Positions 22,098 to 42,089 of a stretch of DNA of 64,000 nucleotides are shown here, one piece after another. A model generated the notes under the pieces. That model had not been told where the DNA came from. It did no database searches and worked only from the letters and a program-made list of their open reading frames with translations. A program made the position numbers and the translations under genes. Where the stretch lies: NCBI GenBank assembly GCA_905182785.1, contig CAJJDF010000020.1:3177-67176 (forward strand), read 5' to 3'. The DNA comes from an uncultured Flavobacteriales bacterium. GTDB lineage: Bacteria > Bacteroidota > Bacteroidia > Flavobacteriales_D > CAJJDF01. Every line of letters starts with the position of its first letter. The stretch's first letter is position 1.

Positions 22098-22784
22098 TTA
22101 CTTAATATTTACATCTGTTGAAAATTGGAATCCCATTCTCTTCCCAGTTTTCAATTGAATAGAGTCTCCAGTGGTTTTTACTTCGTGCACAGAAACTTCG
22201 CTAACAAGCTCATAAAGTGGAGCATAAAGGTCAAATTCCAGGATGTGAATCATTAAGTTTTCAATGATATCTTCCATCAAAGGAGGGTCAAAATTTAAGT
22301 TAGCAAAGTCAGTATATAAAAAACTTAATGTTCTTTTTCCCTCTGCATAAAAATGATTTTCGTTATTCACAAAAAGTCTTCCTATCAAATAACCAAAATC
22401 ATTCACTCTATTGAATCGAAAAGAATCGGATAAAAAATTATATACATTTATTATTCCTGTATATCCTCGGCTCTCGTCTTCTTCTAAATAGGGTGTTTTC
22501 CATATTGTGTGGTTCTCATCAAATTTAAATACATTGGAGTGTAAATTAAAAACAAGAATATCTCCTGCTAAAATTATATGAAATTCATACTTACTCTTTT
22601 CATGGTAATCAATGATAATTCTATCATCTTTAGAGCATACCTTTTCTTTAATTCTGTCGACAAGACTTATTGCTACTTTCTTTAAAACTTGAAATTGGTC
22701 TACTGTATTTTTAAAAACATCCTGTTTTAAAACTGATTTTGTGCACAACATTTCTGTTATTTTATCTAATTCTTCATTTTCCAT
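22098..22784 (-). CDS. Hypothetical cytoplasmic protein, translationally coupled to proS
   Basis: 228-aa ORF from the ATG at 22784, 1 nt after the proS TGA. The track's TTG at 22802 would overlap proS by 17 nt. No signal peptide, TM helix or recognised motif. Confidence 0.55.
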   Translation of the reverse strand: MENEELDKITEMLCTKSVLKQDVFKNTVDQFQVLKKVAISLVDRIKEKVCSKDDRIIIDYHEKSKYEFHIILAGDILVFNLHSNVFKFDENHTIWKTPYLEEDESRGYTGIINVYNFLSDSFRFNRVNDFGYLIGRLFVNNENHFYAEGKRTLSFLYTDFANLNFDPPLMEDIIENLMIHILEFDLYAPLYELVSEVSVHEVKTTGDSIQLKTGKRMGFQFSTDVNIK

Positions 22785-22785
22785 A

Positions 22786-24264
22786 TCAATAAGCTTTTGC
22801 AAATATTACTCTTTCAGACGAAGGTTTTCCAGAATACATACAGGTTCCTTCTTCTTTTTTGTTATCCAATAGTATGCATCTAATAGTAGCTTTTGTTTCT
22901 TTTTTTATTTTTTCTTCAGTTTCTTCCGTTCCATCCCAATGTGCAGAAATAAAACCTCCTTTAGATTCCAATACTTCTTTGAATTCATTATAATCATTCA
23001 CTTCAGTTATATGTTCGTCTCTGTAGGTAAGAGCTTTTTTATAGATAGTGTCTTGAATCACATCTAATAAATTAGAAATATAACTTCCCAATCCTTCTTG
23101 AGGAACAGACTCTTTAGTTTGAGTATCTCTACGAGCCAATTCTATCACATTGTTTTCTACATCTCTTGGTCCAATAGCAATCCTCAATGGAACTCCCTTT
23201 AACTCATATTCTGCAAATTTCCAGCCTGGCTTTCTGTTTTCATCAAAATCAAGTTTTACAGTTACTCCAGCTTTTTTTAGTTCTGTTTCTATTTTAGAAG
23301 CAGCTCCCATAACTAAGTCTTTTTGTTCGTCATTTTTGTAGATAGGAATAATTACTACATGAATAGGTGCTAATTTTGGAGGCAATACTAATCCAGCATC
23401 ATCTGAGTGAGCCATAATTAAAGCTCCCATTAGTCTAGTTGATACGCCCCAAGATGTTCCCCAAACTAATTCTTGTTTTCCTTCTTTGTTTACAAACTTC
23501 ACATCAAATGCATCTGCAAAATTTTGACCTAAGAAATGAGAAGTACCAGCTTGTAATGCTTTTCCATCTTGCATCAATGCTTCAATACACAATGTGTCTT
23601 CAGCTCCTGCAAACCTTTCGCTATCTGTTTTTCTTCCTCTAAGAACAGGCATAGCCATGTGTTCTTCGGCAAAATTTGCATAAACGTGTAACATTTGTTC
23701 TGTTTCTGCTATTGCTTCTGCTTTTGTAGCGTGTGCAGTATGTCCTTCTTGCCATAAAAATTCAGCAGTTCTTAAAAACAATCTTGTTCTCATTTCCCAC
23801 CTTACCACATTTGCCCATTGGTTTATCTTTATTGGTAAATCTCTATAAGATTGAATCCACCTTTTATAAGTACTCCATATAATTGCTTCCGAAGTTGGTC
23901 TTACAATCAGTTCTTCTTCAAGCTTAGCATTTGGATCCACCATTAATTTCCCAGGTTTGTCTGGGTCATTTTTTAATCTATAGTGTGTAACGATTGCAGC
24001 TTCTTTTGCAAATCCTTCTGCATTTTTTTCTTCCGCTTCAAACATACTTTTAGGAACAAAAATTGGGAAATAGGCATTTTGATGTCCTGTTTCCTTGAAC
24101 TGTCTGTCCAGTTCGTCTTTCATTTTTTCCCAAATAGCATACCCATATGGTTTAATTACCATACATCCTCTAACTCCTGAATTTTCAGCTAAATCAGCTT
24201 TTACAACTAGCTCATTATACCATTCGGAATAATTGTCACTTCTCTTGGTTAATTTTTTACTCAT
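22786..24264 (-). CDS. proS: Proline--tRNA ligase (archaeal/eukaryote-like type)
   Basis: 492 aa with class II aaRS motifs. It has no bacterial INS editing insertion and has the C-terminal domain ending in Tyr (..FAKAY). Confidence 0.95.
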
Positions 24265-24386
24265 AATATTTAGTGTGGCACAGTCTTTGTTATTTTTACG
24301 TTAATATACGCTTCCAAATTTAGATAAATTTATGTAAACTAGAAGTGGATTATAAAGAAAGGTCATTTTAATTAAAAATAACAACT

Positions 24387-25823
24387 ATGAAACTTAACTA
24401 TCTACTTATTTCTGCCCTAGCACTAATTAGTTTAAATTCTTTTTCCCAAAATGGGTTTGAGGATTTTGATGATATCTATTCTGACAATACTTCAGGAACA
24501 AAAAATTCTGATGCGAATACTACCAATAATGCAACAGAATTTTCAGATGGGGAAGATGCAGGAGCTTGGATAGAAAATGACGAATATTATGATCCTTCAT
24601 ACAATGCTAAAACAAATTCAGATTCTAGTGGAAATACATACATAACGAACAATTATTATGGAGACTACGAATATTCTTCGAGATTTAGAAGATTTGACAA
24701 TAGAATTTCTGGATACTCTTATTTTGATCCGTTTTACACTAATGTAGGATACTATTCTCCTAACGCTTGGGGGTATGGGAGGAATTTCAGAAGACCAGGA
24801 TGGAATATGGGATGGAGTTCTTACTCAGGATGGAATGTAGGTTATAACTACGGATGGAATAGCAATGGATGGGGAAATAATGGATGGGGAAACAATGGAT
24901 GGGGAAACAATGGATGGGGAAACAATGGATGGGGAAACAATAGATGGGGTAATAATGGATGGGGAAACAATGGTTGGGGTAATAATGGTTATGCATATAA
25001 TCAAGGTTTTAGAGATGGAGTTTATGCTTCAAATGGAGACAATAATAACAGATCAAGGTATTACGGAAGAAGAGAAAGTAGAGGGGCTGGAACAAGATTA
25101 TCATCCACTTATGGGAATAGAAGGTCAAATTCGAGAACAATTAATTCATCAGGGATTACTCAAAACACAAATACTTATGCAGGGAGACAATCTGCAGGAA
25201 ATTCAATAAGAACAGCTAGACCGGCAAGAGCTGCTGCTGTAATTGCTCCAACTAGAGCGTCAGGAGCAACAATGAGATCTGTGGGAGCGCCAGTTAGAAG
25301 AACTTCACCAGCAAGGTCTTCAAAAACTAGAGTAGGTGACAAAAGCCCTTCAGTTATTTCAGCTAAACCCTCTAGAGCTTTAAGAACAAGTTCAACGCCC
25401 TCTTCAAAAAGAACTGGAGTAACTGTTACCAAAGAAAGAGCTGTGCCAACAAGACGTTCTACTACACCTAAAAGAAGATCAATTGGAAAGCCTTCAAGAA
25501 GAACTGTTGGTTCTTCACCATCAAGAACAACTCCAAGCAGAGGAATTCCTACAAGAACAATTCCTTCGAGAACTTCACCAAGAAGAACAACTCCTTTGAG
25601 AACAGCACCAACGAGAACTTCACCAACGAGAACTAGTCCTTCGAGAACAACTCCTGGTAGATCAAGACCAACTAGAACTTCACCTTCAAGAAATTCAGGT
25701 TCTTCAAGGTCATCTGGTTCCTCAAGAACGTCTTCACCATCAAGAAGTTCATCTTCTCCTTCGAGAAGTAGTTCTTCAGGATCGTCAAGAGGAAGTAGTT
25801 CATCAAGAGGAGGAAGAAGATAA
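24387..25823 (+). CDS. Secreted low-complexity protein: acidic/Tyr-rich head, GWGNN repeats, Arg/Ser/Thr/Pro-rich tail
   Basis: 478-aa ORF with a Sec signal (LISALALISLNSFSQ). It contains about 8 tandem NGWGN pentapeptides. The C-terminal ~250 aa are dominated by [ST]P[ST]RT-like motifs with almost no acidic or hydrophobic residues. Confidence 0.6.
   Translation: MKLNYLLISALALISLNSFSQNGFEDFDDIYSDNTSGTKNSDANTTNNATEFSDGEDAGAWIENDEYYDPSYNAKTNSDSSGNTYITNNYYGDYEYSSRFRRFDNRISGYSYFDPFYTNVGYYSPNAWGYGRNFRRPGWNMGWSSYSGWNVGYNYGWNSNGWGNNGWGNNGWGNNGWGNNGWGNNRWGNNGWGNNGWGNNGYAYNQGFRDGVYASNGDNNNRSRYYGRRESRGAGTRLSSTYGNRRSNSRTINSSGITQNTNTYAGRQSAGNSIRTARPARAAAVIAPTRASGATMRSVGAPVRRTSPARSSKTRVGDKSPSVISAKPSRALRTSSTPSSKRTGVTVTKERAVPTRRSTTPKRRSIGKPSRRTVGSSPSRTTPSRGIPTRTIPSRTSPRRTTPLRTAPTRTSPTRTSPSRTTPGRSRPTRTSPSRNSGSSRSSGSSRTSSPSRSSSSPSRSSSSGSSRGSSSSRGGRR
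24864..24983 (+). repeat. 15-bp in-frame tandem repeat x8 (AATGGATGGGGAAAC)
   Basis: Eight head-to-tail units, four of them identical. They encode NGWGN. Confidence 0.9.
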
Positions 25824-25854
25824 TATCAGTCACTTACACTAAAAAATAATTAAA

Positions 25855-27330
25855 ATGAAAAGATATTCATTCATTTTTTTTGGGATTCTTATGGCTTTTT
25901 CGGCTAATTCTCAAAATGAAACAGACGCCCTAAGGTATAGTTATCTTAATTATAATGGAACAGCAAGATATGCTGGACTTGGAGGAGCAATGGGAGCTTT
26001 GGGTGCAGATATGTCTGCAATTTCAATGAACCCTGCAGGAATGGGAAGATACAGTCGGTCTGATTTTAGTTTTACAGGAGACTTAACATTTACACAATCA
26101 AAAGGGGCTTATGATGGAAATACGCTAAATGCGAGCAAAGCAAATTTTAATGTGAGTAATGTGGGAGTGGTTTTTGTAAAACCTATTTCTTTTGAGAAAG
26201 CAACTTTATGGAAATATTTTCAATTTGGAATTACTTCTAATAGAACTAATGATTTTCATGGTAGAACAAATATAGAAGGGAAGAACAATAAATCTTTGTT
26301 GACTTCTTATACTAATTATTTGAATGAAAATAATATTCCTTTGAATGAGACTTCCGATTTTTATGAAGGCTTAGCCTTTGATGCCTCTTTAATTGTTCAC
26401 GATAGTTTATCGGGTGTTTACACTCCTTGGTACAATGAATATGATGCAGAAATAGAGCAAACAAAAAGAACTGTAACAAGAGGTGCACAATACCAAACAG
26501 ATATAGCATTTAGTGGAAATTACAATGGAAAATTATATGTGGGAGGAAGTATAGGATTCCCAAGGATACGATACAATACTTCTTCAACTTACACTGAAAA
26601 ATTTGTAAAAGTAGATTCTGTGTATGATACAGAAGGTTTTTCAATGAAAGAAGATGTTTCTACAGAAGGTTCTGGTTTCAATATGAAACTAGGATTGATT
26701 TATGCTCCGGTTAAGTTTTTGAGAGTAGGGATTGCAGTTCATACTCCAACTTGGTATTCATTAACAGACCAATATTCTACTCAAATCACATCAGACTTTA
26801 CTGATAATTATTATGATGCAATTAAACCATCCCCAGATGGAGATTTTAACTACAGGCTAAAGACTCCCGGAAGAGTAATGGGAAGTATTGCTTTATTATA
26901 TAAGAAAAGAGGGTTCTTGACTTTTGAATATGAGTACGTAGATTATACAAGTGCTATTCTTAAGGATGAACTAGGCGTCAGTAAATCAGATAATTTTGAC
27001 GTTTCAAATAGTACAGCTTCTACTATTTATCAAGGAGCTTCCATATTTAAAGCTGGAGCAGAATTTAGATTAACAAATTTTTGGACCTTGAGAGGTGGTT
27101 ACGCTTATTATGGTTCTCCAATAAAAGACGAACAAGCTCAGGTGGATGCTTCAAGAACAAATTTCTCTGGAGGGATTGGATATAAAAATAGAAACTTCTC
27201 ATTAGATATGACTTATTTAAGGTCACAGTGGAAAGAAGAAAGTTATTTGTATGATCCAAGCTTAGTTACTGCAACAATAGTTGACAGAACACTAAATAAC
27301 TTTATGGTAACAGCAGGGTTTAGATTTTAA
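25855..27330 (+). CDS. FadL/OmpP1/TodX-like outer-membrane beta-barrel protein
   Basis: 491 aa with a signal peptide and a FadL-superfamily N-terminal pattern (ARYAGLGGAMGALGADMSAISMNPAGMG). It has amphipathic strands throughout and a C-terminal ...TAGFRF barrel signature. It starts 31 nt after the upstream gene. Confidence 0.65.
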   Translation: MKRYSFIFFGILMAFSANSQNETDALRYSYLNYNGTARYAGLGGAMGALGADMSAISMNPAGMGRYSRSDFSFTGDLTFTQSKGAYDGNTLNASKANFNVSNVGVVFVKPISFEKATLWKYFQFGITSNRTNDFHGRTNIEGKNNKSLLTSYTNYLNENNIPLNETSDFYEGLAFDASLIVHDSLSGVYTPWYNEYDAEIEQTKRTVTRGAQYQTDIAFSGNYNGKLYVGGSIGFPRIRYNTSSTYTEKFVKVDSVYDTEGFSMKEDVSTEGSGFNMKLGLIYAPVKFLRVGIAVHTPTWYSLTDQYSTQITSDFTDNYYDAIKPSPDGDFNYRLKTPGRVMGSIALLYKKRGFLTFEYEYVDYTSAILKDELGVSKSDNFDVSNSTASTIYQGASIFKAGAEFRLTNFWTLRGGYAYYGSPIKDEQAQVDASRTNFSGGIGYKNRNFSLDMTYLRSQWKEESYLYDPSLVTATIVDRTLNNFMVTAGFRF

Positions 27331-31399: not shown

Positions 31400-33019
31400 C
31401 TATTTTTTTATAAATTTATTTACATATTGGATGTTATCAATAGAATACCTTACTAAATACAATCCCTTCGGCAGGTTTCCTAAATTTTTAATTTTAAAAA
31501 ATTTATTGTTAGAGTAAGTCATCTCATTGTGAACTAGAACTCCACTCACACTATAAATACTGAATTTAATTAATTGATTACTACTTTGCTTTAATTGAAT
31601 AGTTAACTCATTTTTTACAGGATTTGGATATATGTTATGTGATTCTCGTCTCTCTATTTCATTTATAGAAACAAAACTCTCTTTATAGACTCTAACATAA
31701 TCAATAATCAATGTATCTTTTGTGAAACTACTAGCTATACTGGGTTGTATTGCAAAATTGAGTAGTAAATATTGTTCTTTATCAAAAGGCCAGGTACTTG
31801 CATCTTTTATTACTGGATTGTAGGTGTAATGGATGGTGTTGTCAACACTGAAAACCATTTTATCTTTAGTCCATTCTAATGTATAAACATGAAAATTAGA
31901 AGATGCAGTTTGAATTGATTGACCGCCATGATTTACAGTTGCACCAAAACTGGATGGTGTGTGCATAGCGCTTTGAACAAAGTTTTGATTGCCTCCCCAA
32001 TGTTCCATAATATCTATTTCTCCACAAGCTGGCCAAGTGGTTGTTCCATGTCCTTGAGTTTGAAAATATGCTCCTGCCTCATTGATGTTTTTCCCTAATG
32101 TCCAAATTGCTGGCCAAGTTCCAACTCCTGAAGGTAGTTTTGCTCTTACTTCTACTTTACCATATTTAAACGCAAATTTAGAATTCAATCGAGCAGAAGT
32201 ATAATTTTTGGTTTGACCCTGATCAGAAAAAACTTCCTTTTTTGCAATAATGTTCAAGTTCCCATTACTAACAATAGAGTTATTTATTCGATTTGTATAG
32301 TGTTGTTGTTCTCCATTGAACCAACTCCCAGATCCGGGTAATTGAGTCTGATGAAACCAATTTACATTACTTATTGCTCCATTAGCATTGAATTCATCAG
32401 ACCAAACCAATTGATTAAAAGTTGGACCCACGACAACTGTATCGTAATAAATAAAGTCATCTATATAAGCTATTAATTGATCTGTATTGTTTTCTCCATT
32501 TACTTGAATAAGTACTCGATTAAAATCTGTTCTTAGAATTGGAGCTGGCGAACTTGCATCAAAATTTATATAAGGATCGTTTGCAAAATCAAAAGTGACA
32601 GTTTGCCATTGGTTTAGTATAATGTTTTTTATTACTTCAGTCTGATTAGACCAAGGAGAAGTTAGATTCCCATTTTGTAATTTTAGAGAAACTTGGTTGT
32701 TTTGTGTTCCTGTTATTCCAGAAGAAGGAACATATATTTTTAATGAAATAACATTGTTTTGAGATAGATTGAGATTTCTTCCAATATCAAATTTCACATT
32801 TGCATAAGCGCTTCCATAATCATCATATTTTAATACTTTAGTAGAACTGTTTATTGCTGAAGAAAAAGGATTATTGAAGCTTGTATCAATATTACAATTG
32901 TCGCCCTCCCAAATTGAGATGTTTCCATAGCCATCAAAATTGTCTTGGAGTGTTTGACTTAAAACATTATTAGAAATAATTAGTAATAAAATAAATGGAA
33001 CTGAAATTAATCTATACAT
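31400..33019 (-). CDS. Glycoside hydrolase family 16 (beta-glucanase-like) with T9SS C-terminal sorting domain
   Basis: Signal peptide from the ATG at 33019 (MYRLISVPFILLLIISNNVLSQ) and GH16 catalytic motif GEIDIMEH. It has an N-terminal CBM-like region and a C-terminal T9SS sorting domain (IYPNPVKNELTI ... GLYLVRY). Confidence 0.8.
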   Translation of the reverse strand: MYRLISVPFILLLIISNNVLSQTLQDNFDGYGNISIWEGDNCNIDTSFNNPFSSAINSSTKVLKYDDYGSAYANVKFDIGRNLNLSQNNVISLKIYVPSSGITGTQNNQVSLKLQNGNLTSPWSNQTEVIKNIILNQWQTVTFDFANDPYINFDASSPAPILRTDFNRVLIQVNGENNTDQLIAYIDDFIYYDTVVVGPTFNQLVWSDEFNANGAISNVNWFHQTQLPGSGSWFNGEQQHYTNRINNSIVSNGNLNIIAKKEVFSDQGQTKNYTSARLNSKFAFKYGKVEVRAKLPSGVGTWPAIWTLGKNINEAGAYFQTQGHGTTTWPACGEIDIMEHWGGNQNFVQSAMHTPSSFGATVNHGGQSIQTASSNFHVYTLEWTKDKMVFSVDNTIHYTYNPVIKDASTWPFDKEQYLLLNFAIQPSIASSFTKDTLIIDYVRVYKESFVSINEIERRESHNIYPNPVKNELTIQLKQSSNQLIKFSIYSVSGVLVHNEMTYSNNKFFKIKNLGNLPKGLYLVRYSIDNIQYVNKFIKK

Positions 33020-33116
33020 GAGTTTATATTGCTTTTTGTTAAAAATACAATAACCATTTGAATATTTCAACTCAAAGAAGATTATTCTCAAGAAGTTCAG
33101 ATTTAACTGTCGAAAT

Positions 33117-35863: not shown

Positions 35864-37207
35864 TTATTTTTTTATTACAACCTTAAAAGTCTTTACATTA
35901 TTCTCATTAGAAATTTTTACCAAATAAATTCCTGCGTAAACTGTTTCAATGTCAAAATAGGCGATTGTTTGTCCTTTATTGATTTTAGATTGTTTGATTC
36001 GTTTTCCGTTTATGTTATACAAAGCAATATCAAAATCATATTTTATCAAATCATTAAATTGAATCGCAATTAAATCGGATGCTGGATTTGGAAAGACAGT
36101 AACCTTTAATTTTTCAAATTCATTTTTATTTATTCCCACAGTAGAGGTGTAAGGAGTTGTTCCGCTTGGGACAGAAGTGACTTTTGCATTGGCATAAACG
36201 CCATAAAATGTTGGCCCCACCACATAAGGGTAAGCCGAGTTGTGGTTGGTATCTACAGTTGCAAAATAAGCATAAGTTCCATTTGGATATTCGGGTGTTT
36301 TACACCATCTTCCATTGTGTTCGTCCAAATAAGTTAAATCTGTAGGATGAGCTATAAATTGGTAGTCTTCTCTAAAATAGCCATTAAAATAAGTGGTATT
36401 CACAGCAGGACCATTTGTTCTTGTGGTTGCAGTGTTTAATTGGTACCCAGATTTAATTCTTACGATTGCACCAGTTCCATTTGTGTCTGCAAAGCCATAA
36501 GCTCCATAAACTGGGAATCCATCATAGGCAAATCCAATAAGTGGTGAATGAGAACTAGAGTCTATTGTATACAATCCATCTGCATCATATAAATTGCAAA
36601 TTGTAGAGATAACTACTTTGTCTAGTTTAAAAGCACTTGGGTTTTGATGGTGGTGGTAATTTCCCCTTGCAGGATGTCCTTTGGAGCAATCGAAACCTCC
36701 TTTTTCTGCTGGGATTGCATCACGGTTCCAATCTTGTGTTGCCATTGGTCCTCCTGGGCAAGGTGGATTTCCTGGTCCGCCACAAAGTGCGCTTGTTGCA
36801 TTGTTCCAAGCTACTCCATCTCGGTAATCAAATAGAGCTACTCCATTAATAAAAACACCAATATTACCTCCAGTGGTTGCAGTTTTTGTTCCTGTGTTTT
36901 CAACAGGGGCTAATGGGAATTTAAAAATAGCATTTTGATCGGATGCAAGGGAAGGATTTCCATCTAAAAAAGGACCTGTAGGATAAGCTGGAATTCCTTT
37001 GGTAGATACATACACATCTGTAGTATTATACTGAACAGATTGACAGTTTATCAAAACATTATTTGAAATAGCTAAAGAATTACCCGATACATAATAAGTT
37101 CCTAAAACAGTGTTGTTTTGTAACCAATCTGTTATTACTGGATTTGTTTGGCTATAGCTCATTGTTGCAATAAGGTAGGCTGTTATAATTAATATTATTT
37201 TTTTCAT
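35864..37207 (-). CDS. YHYH-domain protein with T9SS C-terminal sorting domain
   Basis: 447 aa with a signal peptide. It has two His-rich motifs typical of the YHYH family (CSKGHPARGNYHHHQNP and LDEHNGRWCKTPEYPNGTYAYF). A C-terminal T9SS sorting domain is present (VFPNPASDLIAI ... GIYLVKI). Confidence 0.65.
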   Translation of the reverse strand: MKKIILIITAYLIATMSYSQTNPVITDWLQNNTVLGTYYVSGNSLAISNNVLINCQSVQYNTTDVYVSTKGIPAYPTGPFLDGNPSLASDQNAIFKFPLAPVENTGTKTATTGGNIGVFINGVALFDYRDGVAWNNATSALCGGPGNPPCPGGPMATQDWNRDAIPAEKGGFDCSKGHPARGNYHHHQNPSAFKLDKVVISTICNLYDADGLYTIDSSSHSPLIGFAYDGFPVYGAYGFADTNGTGAIVRIKSGYQLNTATTRTNGPAVNTTYFNGYFREDYQFIAHPTDLTYLDEHNGRWCKTPEYPNGTYAYFATVDTNHNSAYPYVVGPTFYGVYANAKVTSVPSGTTPYTSTVGINKNEFEKLKVTVFPNPASDLIAIQFNDLIKYDFDIALYNINGKRIKQSKINKGQTIAYFDIETVYAGIYLVKISNENNVKTFKVVIKK

Positions 37208-37258
37208 AGGGCTTGTAATTTGCTGTAAATTTTATACTTAGTAGACGAGTTTAATTGT

Positions 37259-38287
37259 TTAATCCTTCTCCGGCAATAATATACTTCTTGGAAATTTATT
37301 TTTTGGGTTAAAAACAAACGCTTTATCATCCAAAGTTTTAAGAAAAGCTATTAAATCTACTTTTTCATTAGAAGAAAATGTAATTTTCTTTTTTAATTTG
37401 AGACTCAATGTTGGACTATCTTTTATTCCGTTTGTATAGTGATTTAGTACTTGGTTTAATTTGTTAAATCTTCCGTCATGCATGTAAGGGTATGAATAAC
37501 TTAAGTTTCTCAAACTAGGAATTTTAAACAGCATATTGTCTTCTGTTTTTTGAGTTATTCTTTTCCTTCCATAATCTGATAAAGTAGAATCAATAGGCAG
37601 TCCATTATTAGCAAATTGATAGCTAGAAAATAGCGGTTCGGTATGGCAAGAATTACAGTTTTGTTTAAATAATTTATATCCGTTTTGCTCTTTTGAAGAA
37701 AAGAATTTTTCTCCTGATTTTACTTGGTCGTATTTGGAATTTGCAGAAACTAAAGTCAATTGAAACTGAGTTAATGCTTTTAACATTAATTCTCCTGTAA
37801 TTTCTTTTGTGCCAAAAGCACTTTCAAATAATACGGGATAAATGGAGGATTTATTTAGTTTATCCACCACATTTTTTGTGGTTTCTCCCATTTCTCCTGC
37901 GTGATTTATTGGAGCTAATGCCTGCATATCCAAATGATTAATTGCTCCGTCCCACATGAAAGAACTGTGCCATGCTAGATTAAATAAAGCTGGGGCATTT
38001 CGTGTTCCAATGCTGTCGTATATGCCGTGGCTTAAATCGTGATCGGTATGAGCAAAAGCATTATAAGGCGAATGGCATGAAGAGCAAGAAATAGTATTGT
38101 CTTTGGATAAAATAGGATCATAAAATAAAGTTCTTCCTATTTCTATTTTATTTGAGTCTAATGGATTTTCTTCAAAATTATAAATGGGAGCAGGAAAATT
38201 AAGGGGAATTAACCCATCATATTTCATGCATTTGAAAGCAAATAAAAACAAGGAAAAGACTACTATAACAATCAGATTTTTATTCAT
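37259..38287 (-). CDS. Di-haem cytochrome c peroxidase family enzyme (CCP/MauG/MbnH-like)
   Basis: Signal peptide, two haem-c motifs (CSSCH, CNSCH) and a conserved PSLRN..PYMHDG segment. Confidence 0.85.
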   Translation of the reverse strand: MNKNLIVIVVFSLFLFAFKCMKYDGLIPLNFPAPIYNFEENPLDSNKIEIGRTLFYDPILSKDNTISCSSCHSPYNAFAHTDHDLSHGIYDSIGTRNAPALFNLAWHSSFMWDGAINHLDMQALAPINHAGEMGETTKNVVDKLNKSSIYPVLFESAFGTKEITGELMLKALTQFQLTLVSANSKYDQVKSGEKFFSSKEQNGYKLFKQNCNSCHTEPLFSSYQFANNGLPIDSTLSDYGRKRITQKTEDNMLFKIPSLRNLSYSYPYMHDGRFNKLNQVLNHYTNGIKDSPTLSLKLKKKITFSSNEKVDLIAFLKTLDDKAFVFNPKNKFPRSILLPEKD

Positions 38288-38961
38288 AGTTTTGAATGAA
38301 AACAGGTTGCTAATATCTCGGTCATATCCACAGCCTTTTTTCCTGGGCTCATGATAGTATGGTTAGATTCTAAATTAATCGTAGAAAATAATTTGCTAAA
38401 ATTCAATTCGTATTCTCCATCCTCGGCATAAGGGAGGGTCGCTTTTTGTGCTGTTTGATGAGGAAAAGTAAAACCACCTAAATGAAATTGAAATTTATTT
38501 TTTCGTGTCGGACATTGTGATGAAAAGCCTTCAATTTTTGTATTGATGTAACCGCTTTGCCAAGTCCAATACATTCCGTTTGTAGGATCTAAATCTCCAC
38601 CCAATGCTCCAGCAGAATTTGTAATACTATCAATACCGAGAGTAAAAGAAACGGAATCCCAATTGGATTTTTTCACCTTTTGTGAAAGTATGCGAAGGGA
38701 AGCAGGATTGCTTAAATCGATTAAATGAAACCTCTTCGGAAAGCAATAAGTTTTAGATTTTCCTTTGTGTAATTTAATATTAGAAATATAAAATTTTAAA
38801 GATGAAAAACGAATCGTGTCCTCGTACCTATAATAATCTCGATCAAGCTGAATTATGTTTCTTTGAAAAGTAGGAGTGAAGGTGAGTCCTCTTTTTTTCT
38901 TTGGCACAAAAGAGGCGCAAAGAAATACAGTAAAAATAATAAAGAGAATTGTTTTCATCAT
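38284..38961 (-). CDS. MbnP-like periplasmic partner protein (putative)
   Basis: 225 aa with a signal peptide and a Trp-rich conserved-looking core (GMYWTWQSGYINTKIEG). Its stop overlaps the peroxidase start (ATGA). The family call comes from gene-pair architecture and recollection of Bacteroidota MbnP family annotations, and it is not verified. Confidence 0.45.
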   Translation of the reverse strand: MMKTILFIIFTVFLCASFVPKKKRGLTFTPTFQRNIIQLDRDYYRYEDTIRFSSLKFYISNIKLHKGKSKTYCFPKRFHLIDLSNPASLRILSQKVKKSNWDSVSFTLGIDSITNSAGALGGDLDPTNGMYWTWQSGYINTKIEGFSSQCPTRKNKFQFHLGGFTFPHQTAQKATLPYAEDGEYELNFSKLFSTINLESNHTIMSPGKKAVDMTEILATCFHSKL

Positions 38962-39014
38962 CTATAAATATACAAAGTTAGACGAAACAGCTGGAGGATT
39001 CCTTTTGTTTATTT

Positions 39015-39047
39015 AAAAAAAAAGCTCCGATATTTCGGAGCTTTTTT
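39015..39047 (-). terminator. Rho-independent terminator after the thioredoxin-fold gene
   Basis: A-run, stem AGCTCCGA / TCGGAGCT, T-run. It separates the thioredoxin-fold gene transcriptionally from the MbnP-like operon. Confidence 0.6.
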
Positions 39048-39066: not shown

Positions 39067-39807
39067 TTATTTCTTCACTCTTTTAATAGAACACCCTTTA
39101 TTTTTTGAAGTTGGAGTTGCAATTGCTTCTCCTTTGCTTAAGCTAGTCATTGCATCTGCCAACCAGTTTTCTTTTACGTCAGCTTTGCTATCTACATTAT
39201 CATCAATCGCTCCAGTGTAAACTAGTTTGTTTTCTGAATTGAATAAATAAACATGAGGAGTTGTTTTTGCATTAAATGCATCAGCAACAACATGATTTTC
39301 ATCCATCAAATATTTGATGTTATCATATTTGTTGTCAGTAGCATGTTCAACCATAGCTTCAAAAGAGTCTTCATCAGCTCTTTTCCCTTCGTTTGAGTTT
39401 ACCAAAGCAAATCCAATTTCCAATTCTCCTGCCATTTTATTGATGTCATTGTATCTGTTTTCCCATCCTTCAGTATCTTCTCCTCTTCCTACTACGAAAG
39501 GACAAGTGTTACAAGAAAAAATGATTAATGATCCATTCTTTTTTCCTAATTCTTCAATGTACATTTCAGTTCCAGAGATATCTTTTAGTTTAGTTTCTAA
39601 AGAAGGGTTTTCTGAGCCAATTGTCATCTTTCCTTGTTCCTGAGCACAACATTTTTTCTTACAATCTTTTTCACAATCTTGGCTGTCTTTGTTTCCATGA
39701 GAACAAGCTTCTTTTTTGCAGTCTTTCTCACATTTTTCTCCTGTTGCTTCAGTTCCACAAGAGAACATTAATAATGCTGCTGATACTATTAAAATTAATT
39801 TTTTCAT
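39067..39807 (-). CDS. Thioredoxin-fold (peroxiredoxin-like) lipoprotein with N-terminal Cys-cluster region
   Basis: Lipobox LMFSC, then 9 Cys in about 40 aa, including duplicated CEKDCKK. A thioredoxin-fold domain follows with CNTCP and a C-terminal GCSIK motif. Confidence 0.65.
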   Translation of the reverse strand: MKKLILIVSAALLMFSCGTEATGEKCEKDCKKEACSHGNKDSQDCEKDCKKKCCAQEQGKMTIGSENPSLETKLKDISGTEMYIEELGKKNGSLIIFSCNTCPFVVGRGEDTEGWENRYNDINKMAGELEIGFALVNSNEGKRADEDSFEAMVEHATDNKYDNIKYLMDENHVVADAFNAKTTPHVYLFNSENKLVYTGAIDDNVDSKADVKENWLADAMTSLSKGEAIATPTSKNKGCSIKRVKK

Positions 39808-39936
39808 TGTTATTTTTATCTAGTTTTTATTTTTTATAAAAGTTTGGGTTTATTAAAAAAAGAAAGTTTTAATAAAGAGATTAATTATAACCTTGTTCTT
39901 TTTCTAACTCAGAAAAGAAATCAAAAAAAATCAGAG

Positions 39937-41613
39937 TTAAAATTTAATAATGTAATATACCCCAGCATTAACTGGTCTCGTTTCTAAACCTCCTTCGTTC
40001 TGAGTTCCTGAAGTATTACCTCCGTCACCATTTCTTCTTAGTGATGTGTTACCAAAACCACCTCCACTAGTAATTAAATGGCCATGAGATTTAATTTCAT
40101 CAGATTGATAACTTCCTACATTGTCTCCAGTATTTCCCCCAGTATGTAATGCAGTTCTGCCAGATGCATCTGGGTCGTTATCTGCTCCAGCATCTACACC
40201 TCTTGCAAATCTTCCTCTCATATCAGGTAAATTAAATGTAGTAGAATTATCTCCTTGTCCCCAGCTTGTTCCTAATGCTGTGAATAAAGTTGAATAAGTA
40301 CTTCTTGAAATTGCTGATCCATCACACAAAATCCAACCTGTAGGAATCGAGTTTCCAGCATAAAGCATTATAGTTCCTACAGGAACTCCTGTGTTCCCAG
40401 AAGAGGATGGAACAACTACAAAATTTGATGAGCTTAAGTAAAGTGTGTCGTTACTATAATTTAAAACTTGAATCTCATTAGTAGAATCATTATCTGAATC
40501 AATTACCGAATCTTTAGCATAGTCTCCTAAGTAAACACTTCCGCCATTAGATAAATATAAAGTATCATTAGAAATTGAAATAGCTTGAACTCCTTCTGGT
40601 CCTTCTGGTCCAGTTACTCCAGTGTCTCCTTTAAGTCCTTGTATCCCAGTTGTTCCTTGTGCACCTGTCATTCCCTGAATTCCTTGTAACCCTTGCGGTC
40701 CCATTGCTCCTGCAAGTCCTGTGTCTCCTTTCGCACCTTGTATTCCTTGTGGTCCAGTCATTCCAGTAGCACCTTGCGCCCCCGTCATTCCTTGAATTCC
40801 GATTGGTCCAGTAACTCCAGTATCACCTTTCTCACCAGTTAATCCTTGTAAACCTTGTGGTCCAGTCATCCCAGTTGTTCCTTGTGCACCTGTCATTCCC
40901 TGAATTCCTTGTAACCCTTGCGGTCCTATTGCTCCTGCAAGTCCTGTGTCCCCTTTCGCACCTTGTAAACCTTGCGGTCCAGTCATTCCAGTTGTTCCTT
41001 GAGCACCAGTCATACCAATAGGCCCTTGTGTACCTGCTATTCCTTGTGCTCCAGTATCTCCTTTTGGTCCTTGAGGTCCTGTTCCTGGAGTTGGTAAAAC
41101 CACAAATCCAGAATTTGAAAGAAATAAAGTATCATTAGAATACGACAATACTTGTAATTCATTGGTAGCATCTGAATCTGCATCATTTACTTTATCAAAC
41201 TTTACACTGTCTGCTTTTGATGCATAAAGCGCATAAGGAACACTTAATAATTCGCTTACACCTGAAATAGTATAAGTTGTTCCGCCAGTAGGATCTGTTT
41301 CTGTTTTGATAAAATATGGGCCATTTGCCCAATTTATATAAGAGAAAGTTCCTGTTCCTGCTGTTCCTGTTCCGATTTCTAATGAAACTAATCCATTTGC
41401 ATTAGTAGAGGTAGAGTGAGTTTCGGAGTAAACTGCTGAACTAGTAGCAGAACCTTGTAAAATACTTATTTTCATTCCTACGGTTGAAGAAGTAACTAGA
41501 CCATTGCTTGCATTTCTTAATACTGCTTGATAACTAATTTTATTAGGTGCCTGGCCAAATAATAATGTAGTAATACAAATTATTAGATAGATTGTGATTA
41601 ATAATTTTTTCAT
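39937..41613 (-). CDS. Collagen-like triple-helix repeat protein with C-terminal phage tail-collar (MdpB-like) domain
   Basis: 558 aa with a Sec signal and an N-terminal beta-rich domain ending SVPYALYA. It has about 54 uninterrupted Gly-X-Y triplets. The tail-collar motifs are [37 protein letters not shown] ... [13 protein letters not shown]. No T9SS sorting domain is present. Confidence 0.75.
40591..41085 (-). repeat. Gly-X-Y coding repeat region with four ~110-bp near-duplicate modules
   Basis: The protein modules beginning GMTGAQG(T/A)TG recur four times. The underlying DNA blocks are near-identical. Confidence 0.8.
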
Positions 41614-41768
41614 TCTTATTTTTTTATAAGTTTAAATGATTATTTTTTATTGTTTTTCGAGTTGTAAACTTGCATGATGTAGGTTGCTGAAAAGAAATTA
41701 TTTATATCGATTTTCGTGAGTTGATTTTCTATTTTCTCCTTTTTTTTCTAAATCTACTTCAAAACAAT

Positions 41769-42089
41769 CTAATCTTCAGTTTTCCAGTTTTTAGTATTTT
41801 TTTTGTGATAAACAAAACTTAGTTTGTTTGCTATGTCGTGATTCTTGTCACGGTTTCCACTTGCTTCTTTTATTTTTGTTTCTTGTTCCATTAAGAAGTT
41901 TCCAACCTCCAAAGTGTGTTTTCCTTTTTCAAATATAACGATTACTGTAGTAACATACCAATCGTATTCAATCGGTTCCATTTCATCCGCCACTTCTATC
42001 ACGTTCCAGCTTGTTTGAAGAATGTGAGTCATCATCTCTCTCATGCCTTCATTTTGTACGTCTGTGTGTTCTTCTTCTCTTTCTTCCAT
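41769..42089 (-). CDS. Hypothetical acidic protein, translationally coupled to lysS
   Basis: 106-aa ORF whose ATG directly abuts the lysS TAG (..GAAAACTAGATGGAA..). No family recognised. Confidence 0.5.
   Translation of the reverse strand: MEEREEEHTDVQNEGMREMMTHILQTSWNVIEVADEMEPIEYDWYVTTVIVIFEKGKHTLEVGNFLMEQETKIKEASGNRDKNHDIANKLSFVYHKKNTKNWKTED

Follow-up and report, generated by a model that had tools for sequence, protein, structure and literature searches.

A gene trio coding for an MbnP/MbnH-type pair and a YHYH protein with a type IX sorting domain in an uncultured Flavobacteriales bacterium

Analysis of a 64,000-nt stretch of DNA (hereafter the window) from an uncultured marine Flavobacteriales bacterium with a genome of ~2.3 Mb identified, in the region 35864-38961, three consecutive genes: an MbnP-family gene, a gene for a di-haem enzyme of the MauG/MbnH type, and a gene coding for a YHYH-domain protein that ends in a sorting domain of the type IX secretion system (T9SS). 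The positions of these genes, referred to below as the trio, and of the surrounding features are listed in Table 1. The MbnP stop codon and the MbnH start codon overlap (ATGA); the MbnH and YHYH genes are separated by 51 nt, a gap in which a hairpin scan found no terminator-like hairpin. This arrangement had been described in a first-pass annotation of the locus, and its open reading frames, the spacing and all the motifs that it named were each confirmed in the sequence. The hairpin scan also located a strong bidirectional terminator between the trio and the thioredoxin-like gene upstream, and the hairpin is retained, with a different loop, in a near-identical strain (locus L102). Since this terminator closes the upstream gene, the trio opens a new transcription unit. 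An Rfam scan of the locus yielded sub-threshold matches only, all of them on the terminator hairpin.

Table 1. Positions, within the 64,000-nt window, of the trio genes, the predicted promoters and the neighbouring features
Feature	Position	Strand	Remarks
MbnP-family protein gene	38284..38961	minus	225 aa, N-terminal signal sequence
MauG/MbnH-type di-haem enzyme gene	37259..38287	minus	342 aa
YHYH protein gene	35864..37207	minus	447 aa, signal peptide and T9SS tail
Predicted extracytoplasmic function (ECF)-type promoter P(mbnP)	38978..39004	minus	AAGGA-N15-CGTCTAA, ends 17 nt before the MbnP ATG
Predicted ECF-type promoter P(yhyh)	37242..37267	minus	AAGGA-N15-CGTCTA, ends 35 nt before the YHYH ATG
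Bidirectional intrinsic terminator	39018..39047		13-bp stem, T/A tracts on both sides; hairpin scan
Allelic divergence block relative to L102	38180..39450		46-83% DNA identity within 97-100% identical flanks
Gene for Cys-rich lipoprotein with thioredoxin-like part	39067..39807	minus	upstream of the terminator; sub-threshold Redoxin/DUF6436 matches only
Gene for 563-aa secreted protein	31400-33091	minus	
Gene for 558-aa collagen-like protein	39817-41769 (ORF 41613..39937)	minus	

The product of the first gene matched the Pfam family MbnP (PF20243) with 135.2 bits against a gathering score of 27, over model positions 6-188 of 189, in agreement with its earlier description as MbnP-like. The segment GMYWTWQSGY is found at residues 129-138. 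W132 and W134 of this segment, together with H160, are invariant both in the close subfamily and across the three paralogous subfamilies of this genome, and M130 reaches at least 90% conservation in the MbnP alignments. Judging from these alignments, M130, W132/W134 (the WxW motif) and H160 are the candidate copper-site residues.

Searches of the PDB with the single sequence and with a profile of the subfamily found nothing; a broad profile alone reached 7L6G, the MbnP of Methylosinus trichosporium, to which the protein is ~12% identical. An AlphaFold2 model was obtained with a predicted local distance difference test score (pLDDT) of 86 and a predicted template modelling score of 0.80. When this model was compared with the PDB using Foldseek, the top six matches were all chains of 7L6G (E 3e-8 to 2e-7, probability 1.0, template modelling score 0.55-0.61). 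This structure was the sole significant match, the next one having an E value of 0.2. As the sequence searches had given at most a marginal match to 7L6G, the question of the fold was settled by the fold search: according to the model, the protein has the MbnP fold.

The second gene product belongs to the di-haem CCP/MauG family, as the first-pass annotation had proposed (PF03150, 176 bits), with haem c sites CSSCH at residues 68-72 and CNSCH at residues 211-215 and an inter-haem Trp, W112, in FMWDG. It matches MbnH (6E1C) over its full length, and the MbnH family model TIGR04039 was the best-scoring NCBIfam model despite a score below its cut-off. Tyr284 aligns with the Tyr of 6E1C (in "idiYseg") and with the position of the Met ligand in the bacterial cytochrome c peroxidase 3O5C; the alignments with MauG stop at chain residue 296, corresponding to residue 286 of the query, which brings MauG Tyr294 opposite Y284. 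Because a Tyr occupies the distal-ligand position of the second haem, the alignments identify the enzyme as MauG/MbnH-type and not as a plain peroxidase.

The closest known pair is MbnP/MbnH of M. trichosporium OB3b (7L6G and 6E1C; Kenney 2019 and Manesis 2021, as summarised in PMC11951088). The copper site of that MbnP is made up of a His, a Met and kynurenine 174, which MbnH produces by converting one of the Trp residues in the conserved WxW motif (PMC11951088). Similar pairs are widespread and have been called the "metallo-mystery pair" (TIGR04052/TIGR04039, GenProp0940; PMC3621798). As in OB3b, the first two genes of the trio are adjacent and coupled and code for a WxW beta-sandwich protein and a MauG-like di-haem enzyme; the predicted MbnP fold, the Met, Trp-x-Trp and His residues, the Tyr ligand of MbnH and the export signals on both proteins are shared as well. 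The WxW alignment leaves two candidate counterparts of Kyn174, W132 and W134. By analogy, the chemistry of the methanotroph pair probably also operates here, a view that we hold with somewhat better than even confidence. Unlike the OB3b system, the trio is not accompanied by methanobactin genes or by the transporter MbnT or another TonB transporter; a T9SS-tailed YHYH protein is found instead. As noted in the first-pass annotation, no TonB-dependent transporter adjoins the trio, the nearest Plug domain on the contig being ~16 kb away.

The genome holds three MbnP-MbnH pairs. One paralogous MbnP (contig C70, 897-1871; locus L003) is a protein of 324 aa with a T9SS sorting domain of its own (PF18962, 34 bits); its gene adjoins a second MbnH gene, and genes for a TonB-dependent receptor and HmuY-like proteins are found nearby. 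The presence of the sorting domain on this paralogue indicates that an MbnP can itself be T9SS cargo. The MbnP of locus L013 also carries a T9SS-like tail.

The third protein of the trio matched the YHYH family (PF14240) with 183 bits against a cut-off of 25. The domain covers residues 95-322 (nt 36242-36925) and includes the motifs GNYHHHQNP (residues 182-190), LDEHNGRWC (294-302) and YAYF (312-315). In an alignment of 52 diverse representatives H178, H185, H187, D229, D281 and D295 were invariant in the family, and W160, Y184 and Y314 were near-invariant. These His and Asp residues agree with the site of three His and one Asp predicted for the YHYH domain by Iyer et al. 2021 (PMC7824862), and a constellation of three His and three Asp is, as a residue pattern, typical of a metal centre. 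In that study the domain was described in tail proteins of jumbo phages, where it is joined to tail or lectin modules, and a role as Zn hydrolase was predicted for it (PMC7824862). The trio protein shares with the phage proteins the domain and the conserved His triad and Asp; unlike them, it is a stand-alone protein with a T9SS tail, encoded in an operon with a candidate copper-protein pair. The family comprises 5,056 representative clusters and is still called uncharacterised by a 2026 preprint; a sequence search with the trio protein found no relative of solved structure.

The C-terminal residues 371-445 (nt 35873-36097) form a type-A T9SS sorting domain (PF18962, 51.5 bits; TIGR04183, 51.7 bits), so that both domains assigned to this protein in the first-pass annotation were recovered. 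The N-terminus is hydrophobic, with a signal peptide ending SYS/QT. A homologue of GldM was found in the genome, which therefore has a T9SS. With a signal peptide, a sorting domain and the machinery, the YHYH protein is a candidate T9SS cargo.

A MauG-like gene beside the gene of a surface or secreted metal-binding protein is also found in MopE/MCA2590 of Methylococcus capsulatus and in CorA/CorB of Methylomicrobium album BG8. MopE and CorA are secreted kynurenine-copper proteins paired with MauG-like enzymes (PMC3621798), and in both systems kynurenine forms part of the copper site (PMC3621798; PMC11951088). In contrast to the trio, MopE and CorA carry the kynurenine themselves and have another fold, whereas here YHYH, with its His3/Asp signature, would be the secreted protein, next to a periplasmic MbnP encoded by a gene of its own. 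The bp2923 operon of Bordetella is not MbnPH-like; in the paper on it, MbnPH-like genes are only listed among the neighbours of DUF2946.

A total of 401 Bacteroidota genomes were scanned for YHYH and MbnP. A full-length YHYH was found together with an MbnP in 21 genomes; in 12 of these 21 the two genes lie at most 1.5 kb apart on the same strand. They occur in two gene orders, MbnP-MbnH-YHYH and YHYH-MbnP-MbnH, and in seven GTDB families. All 11 loci that were fetched hold all three genes, and every YHYH protein encoded there has a T9SS tail. Among 80 species-representative loci retrieved with the YHYH alignment, MbnH (and MbnP) is adjacent in ~70, most of the others being truncated contigs. 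Nearly all of these 80 loci come from metagenome-assembled genomes (MAGs) of Flavobacteriales, Chitinophagales and Saprospiraceae; the trio is also present in a cultured strain, Aquimarina addita JCM 17106. A reciprocal look-up starting from three MbnP homologues found MbnH and then YHYH in all three cases, and in many relatives the MbnH and YHYH genes overlap or abut. The adjacency of the three genes is far beyond chance, and the expectation of a conserved Bacteroidota module is borne out. The neighbourhoods of the f32-type YHYH genes contained housekeeping genes only and were uninformative.

Two predicted ECF-type promoters were located, one upstream from MbnP and one upstream from YHYH. P(mbnP) overlaps a Bacteroidota-like TAACTTTG box and P(yhyh) lies over the last codons of MbnH; their position weight matrix scores are 17.4 and 18.8, compared with a random 99th percentile of 15.6. 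The core AAGGA-N15-CGTCTA occurs in five copies in the genome, against ~0.1 expected and 0-1 in each of ten simulated genomes. The five sites precede an ECF sigma factor gene on contig C9, MbnP, YHYH, a gene for a 111-aa Lys-rich LTXXQ (Spy-like) protein (contig C34, ~98350-98750) and an operon coding for a DUF2490 barrel-like protein and two CotH-family lipoproteins (contig C31, ~22400-27300). The regions upstream from the sigma gene and from MbnP have in common a strict form of the motif, AAGGA-N12-TTTCGTCTAA, which is found nowhere else in the 2.3 Mb. The YHYH-proximal motif is present in 17 other species, 41-93 nt before the ATG, with the consensus AAGGA[AT]-N14-16-TCGTCTAA[CA]. In strain L102 P(yhyh) is identical, and the -35 and -10 boxes of P(mbnP) are kept at identical spacing around a wholly different spacer.

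The match of its promoter to the sigma gene's own promoter predicts that the trio is a member of an ECF sigma regulon, in which YHYH would have a conserved promoter of its own besides read-through from MbnP/MbnH. The operon on C31 and the gene on C34 are candidate members of the same regulon. CotH genes also occur inside the sigma factor cassette described below in loci L017 and L069. A fortuitous adjacency with promoter motifs that match by chance is contradicted by the synteny survey, the motif counts, the cross-species conservation and the boxes kept around a diverged spacer, and this explanation can practically be discarded. That the trio is a real, co-regulated module we consider very likely.

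The sigma gene is part of a three-gene cassette, the other two products being a small membrane protein with a single membrane-spanning segment, which is a candidate anti-sigma factor, and a membrane-anchored LTXXQ-repeat protein. About half of the relatives have this cassette directly upstream from the trio: it is there in 7 of the 11 loci that were fetched and in ~30 of the 80 species loci, as well as in three other annotated contigs; in the genome studied here the complete cassette is on a separate contig, C9. Among known systems the cassette is closest to CnrH-CnrY-CnrX of Cupriavidus metallidurans, along with the LTXXQ proteins of the CpxP/Spy/ZraP type. The two have the same order of ECF sigma factor, small membrane anti-sigma factor and periplasmic LTXXQ/Metal_resist-like protein, located upstream of metal-related effectors, and promoters of the GGAA...CGTC type. 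They differ in the effectors, which here are MbnPH and YHYH and not an efflux pump, and in the third protein, whose Pfam matches are sub-threshold. The resemblance of this protein to CnrX and CpxP-Spy, as read from its sequence, is no more than suggestive. Control by an ECF sigma/LTXXQ cassette would also set the trio apart from OB3b MbnP/MbnH, which is controlled by MbnI/MbnR.

On the basis of these findings, we propose that the trio constitutes a single cell-envelope module, transcribed from two promoters that would be read by the dedicated ECF sigma factor. In the periplasm the MbnH-like enzyme would oxidise a Trp of the WxW motif of its coupled MbnP-like partner to kynurenine, which together with H160 and M130 would complete a copper site, as in MbnP/MbnH of M. 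trichosporium. The YHYH protein would be exported by Sec and fold in the periplasm, from where the T9SS would carry it to the cell surface or into the medium, and it would work with MbnP/MbnH on the same metal, probably copper. Taken as a whole, this explanation, an ECF-controlled envelope module for a metal (probably copper) in which MbnH matures MbnP and YHYH is functionally coupled to the pair, is tentative, and we give it slightly less than an even chance. In the version that we favour, MbnP would metallate the YHYH protein during its transit through the periplasm, although a direct hand-off of this kind is in itself doubtful. More speculatively, YHYH may represent an unrecognised class of secreted cuproprotein or enzyme, whose metal centre or Trp/Tyr cofactor would be installed by MbnP/MbnH before export by the T9SS; this we consider unlikely. 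If true, MbnP/MbnH would be a dedicated metallochaperone or maturase route for T9SS cargo, triggered by a metal- or envelope-sensing ECF system.

Several observations weigh against this explanation. Both proteins of the pair remain below the cut-offs of the NCBIfam equivalog models, in which they depart from OB3b MbnP/MbnH: the MbnP-like protein scores 40.3 bits with TIGR04052 (MbnP_like_WxW; cut-off 140) and the di-haem enzyme 199.7 bits with TIGR04039 (cut-off 362.85). The four-Cys motif of the "metallo-mystery pair" protein is absent from the MbnP-like protein, which has Cys residues only at positions 15 (in the signal sequence), 73, 150 and 220, C150 alone being conserved within the subfamily. 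Since it misses the equivalog cut-off and lacks the four-Cys motif, this protein is to be seen as a divergent member of the family. The broad profile aligns GMYWTWQSG and HLG with GMAWNWQAG and HVG of 7L6G, at a marginal E value of 0.05. For the YHYH protein the AlphaFold2 model, built on an alignment of 36 sequences with ~66% identity, reached a pLDDT of 45, and for this reason no claim is made for its fold; published predictions for the family favour Zn and a hydrolase role (PMC7824862; N-Zinclopedia preprint). The third protein of the cassette gave only sub-threshold Pfam matches, its best relative scoring 24.7 against 29.2 bits (Metal_resist, PF13801) and 22 against 24.3 bits (LTXXQ, PF07813); the copy of this genome matched neither family. 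A rule that all trios detached from the cassette carry the ECF motif before MbnP was rejected (5/29 against 4/30 above the 95th percentile), while the motif does precede the MbnP of the detached trio here and in the sister strain L102. YHYH genes are present without any MbnP in at least 15 of the surveyed genomes. In one genome that is devoid of MbnP (locus L106; G199, contig C22), the cassette of ECF sigma factor, small transmembrane protein and LTXXQ protein directly precedes the gene of a 322-aa YHYH lipoprotein; this lipoprotein lacks a T9SS tail, and the cassette is also followed by a gene for a membrane protein of 185 aa.

The genomes without MbnP and the L106 locus show that MbnPH is not generally required for YHYH, and the coupling of YHYH to MbnPH is frequent but not obligate. 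The L106 cassette, preceding YHYH in the absence of MbnP, also points to YHYH as the constant output of the ECF/LTXXQ system. The same observations, and the separate promoter of YHYH, would be expected if the proteins were co-regulated but independent stress effectors: MbnP/MbnH would buffer periplasmic copper or remove peroxide, and YHYH would be an unrelated secreted metallo-hydrolase, for instance Zn-dependent as in the published predictions, that remodels the surface or the matrix. The Spy-like and CotH genes in the putative regulon fit this alternative as well. Shared regulation, however, does not need the three genes to be contiguous in two gene orders and in at least seven families, nor does it need MbnH and YHYH to overlap or abut in many relatives, and we regard independent effectors as the less probable case, with a modest chance of being correct.

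The first-pass annotation had suggested a pathway for metal capture or redox maturation. None of the results that it had named as refuting its view was obtained: the protein matches MbnP models, its Trp residues are invariant and the trio is syntenic in relatives. The conserved module stands. Since the module is placed in the regulon of an ECF sigma, anti-sigma and LTXXQ cassette, a role in envelope or metal stress is favoured at least as much as capture. In an acquisition system, YHYH would be an extracellular or surface scavenger that replaces the arm of TonB transporter and chalkophore and passes copper inward to periplasmic MbnP. The YHYH gene indeed occupies the genomic place that MbnT has beside classical MbnPH pairs (PMC3621798), its product combines a T9SS tail with a His-rich invariant site, and secreted MopE*/CorA, which are copper-repressed, provide a precedent (PMC3621798); the T9SS-tailed MbnP paralogue on C70, near a TonB-dependent receptor, points in the same direction. 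Yet the module is accompanied by no outer-membrane importer, either in the window or within the scanned extent of the 80 loci, it is not evident how a T9SS-exported protein could return the metal across the outer membrane, and ECF or CpxP-like control is typical of responses to stress or excess and not of starvation regulons. Acquisition is in our judgement improbable.

A further possibility is that the MauG-type enzyme has the YHYH protein as a second client: during periplasmic transit MbnH would oxidise one of its Trp or Tyr residues (e.g. W160, Y184 or Y314) into a cofactor, as MauG does with methylamine dehydrogenase. Enzymes of the MauG family act on folded partners by long-range oxidation (PMC11951088), the three aromatic residues are near-invariant and lie beside the His motif of YHYH, and the MbnH and YHYH genes are tightly joined in many loci. 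MbnP is already the canonical substrate, however, many genomes have YHYH without any MbnH partner, and no structural model places the aromatic residues near the metal site, so that such a reaction appears very improbable.

The proposed envelope module thus joins a known kind of protein pair, here as a divergent member, to two further elements, the YHYH partner and the ECF/LTXXQ control. No description of a T9SS-exported YHYH partner or of ECF/LTXXQ control of MbnPH was found in the literature searched, consistent with the earlier statement that this is not a described system. MbnP/MbnH pairs are widespread, and the conserved operon offers a testable entry point to their role outside methanotrophs; it also gives the orphan YHYH family a testable link to metal handling and supplies a defined promoter motif together with a candidate sensor cassette. 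The operon also raises the prospect of a secreted metalloprotein that Bacteroidota would load with metal or mature while it is in the periplasm, and it points to a candidate copper-responsive ECF regulon among Flavobacteriia and Saprospiria that are abundant in marine and fresh waters. What the present genome contributes is a split regulon with its promoters retained, the extra candidate regulon members and the replacement of an MbnP allele.

This replacement became apparent from the comparison with strain L102, in which CinA and DHFR are 100%, LysRS 99.7% and YHYH 98.2% identical to their counterparts in this genome; the two MbnP proteins are only 44.6% identical. The divergent block spans the 3' half of the thioredoxin-like gene, the promoter, the whole of MbnP and, in MbnH, ~100 nt at the 5' end, which correspond to the signal-peptide region. 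Both MbnP alleles keep the candidate copper-site residues and the promoter boxes. A divergent block with sharp boundaries inside near-identical flanks indicates that MbnP was replaced allelically by recombination, and such a replacement at the strain level suggests unusual selective or recombinational pressure on MbnP.

The thioredoxin-like gene upstream from the terminator codes for a Cys-rich lipoprotein and is probably transcribed separately from the trio. The protein has ~9 Cys within the first 40 mature residues, with a duplicated CEKDCKK, and a weakly thioredoxin/redoxin-like C-terminal part with a CNTC motif; it could have a metal- or redox-related role. A counterpart of this gene is located directly upstream from the trio also in an Owenweeksia MAG (L020) and in L102, and TlpA-like redoxins are encoded near the trio in loci L005, L006 and L036.

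Downstream from the trio, the window contains a gene for a 563-aa secreted protein that resembles GH16-type glucanases and ends in a T9SS C-terminal domain; it is a putative second T9SS cargo of the window. On the other side, beyond the Cys-rich lipoprotein gene, lies a gene whose 558-aa product combines collagen-like Gly-X-Y repeats (PF01391) with a phage tail-collar domain (PF07484); the N-terminus of this product weakly matches the "mosaic adhesive trimer" fibre proteins of Bdellovibrio. This gene is absent from the otherwise collinear L102 and therefore represents an insertion/deletion polymorphism.

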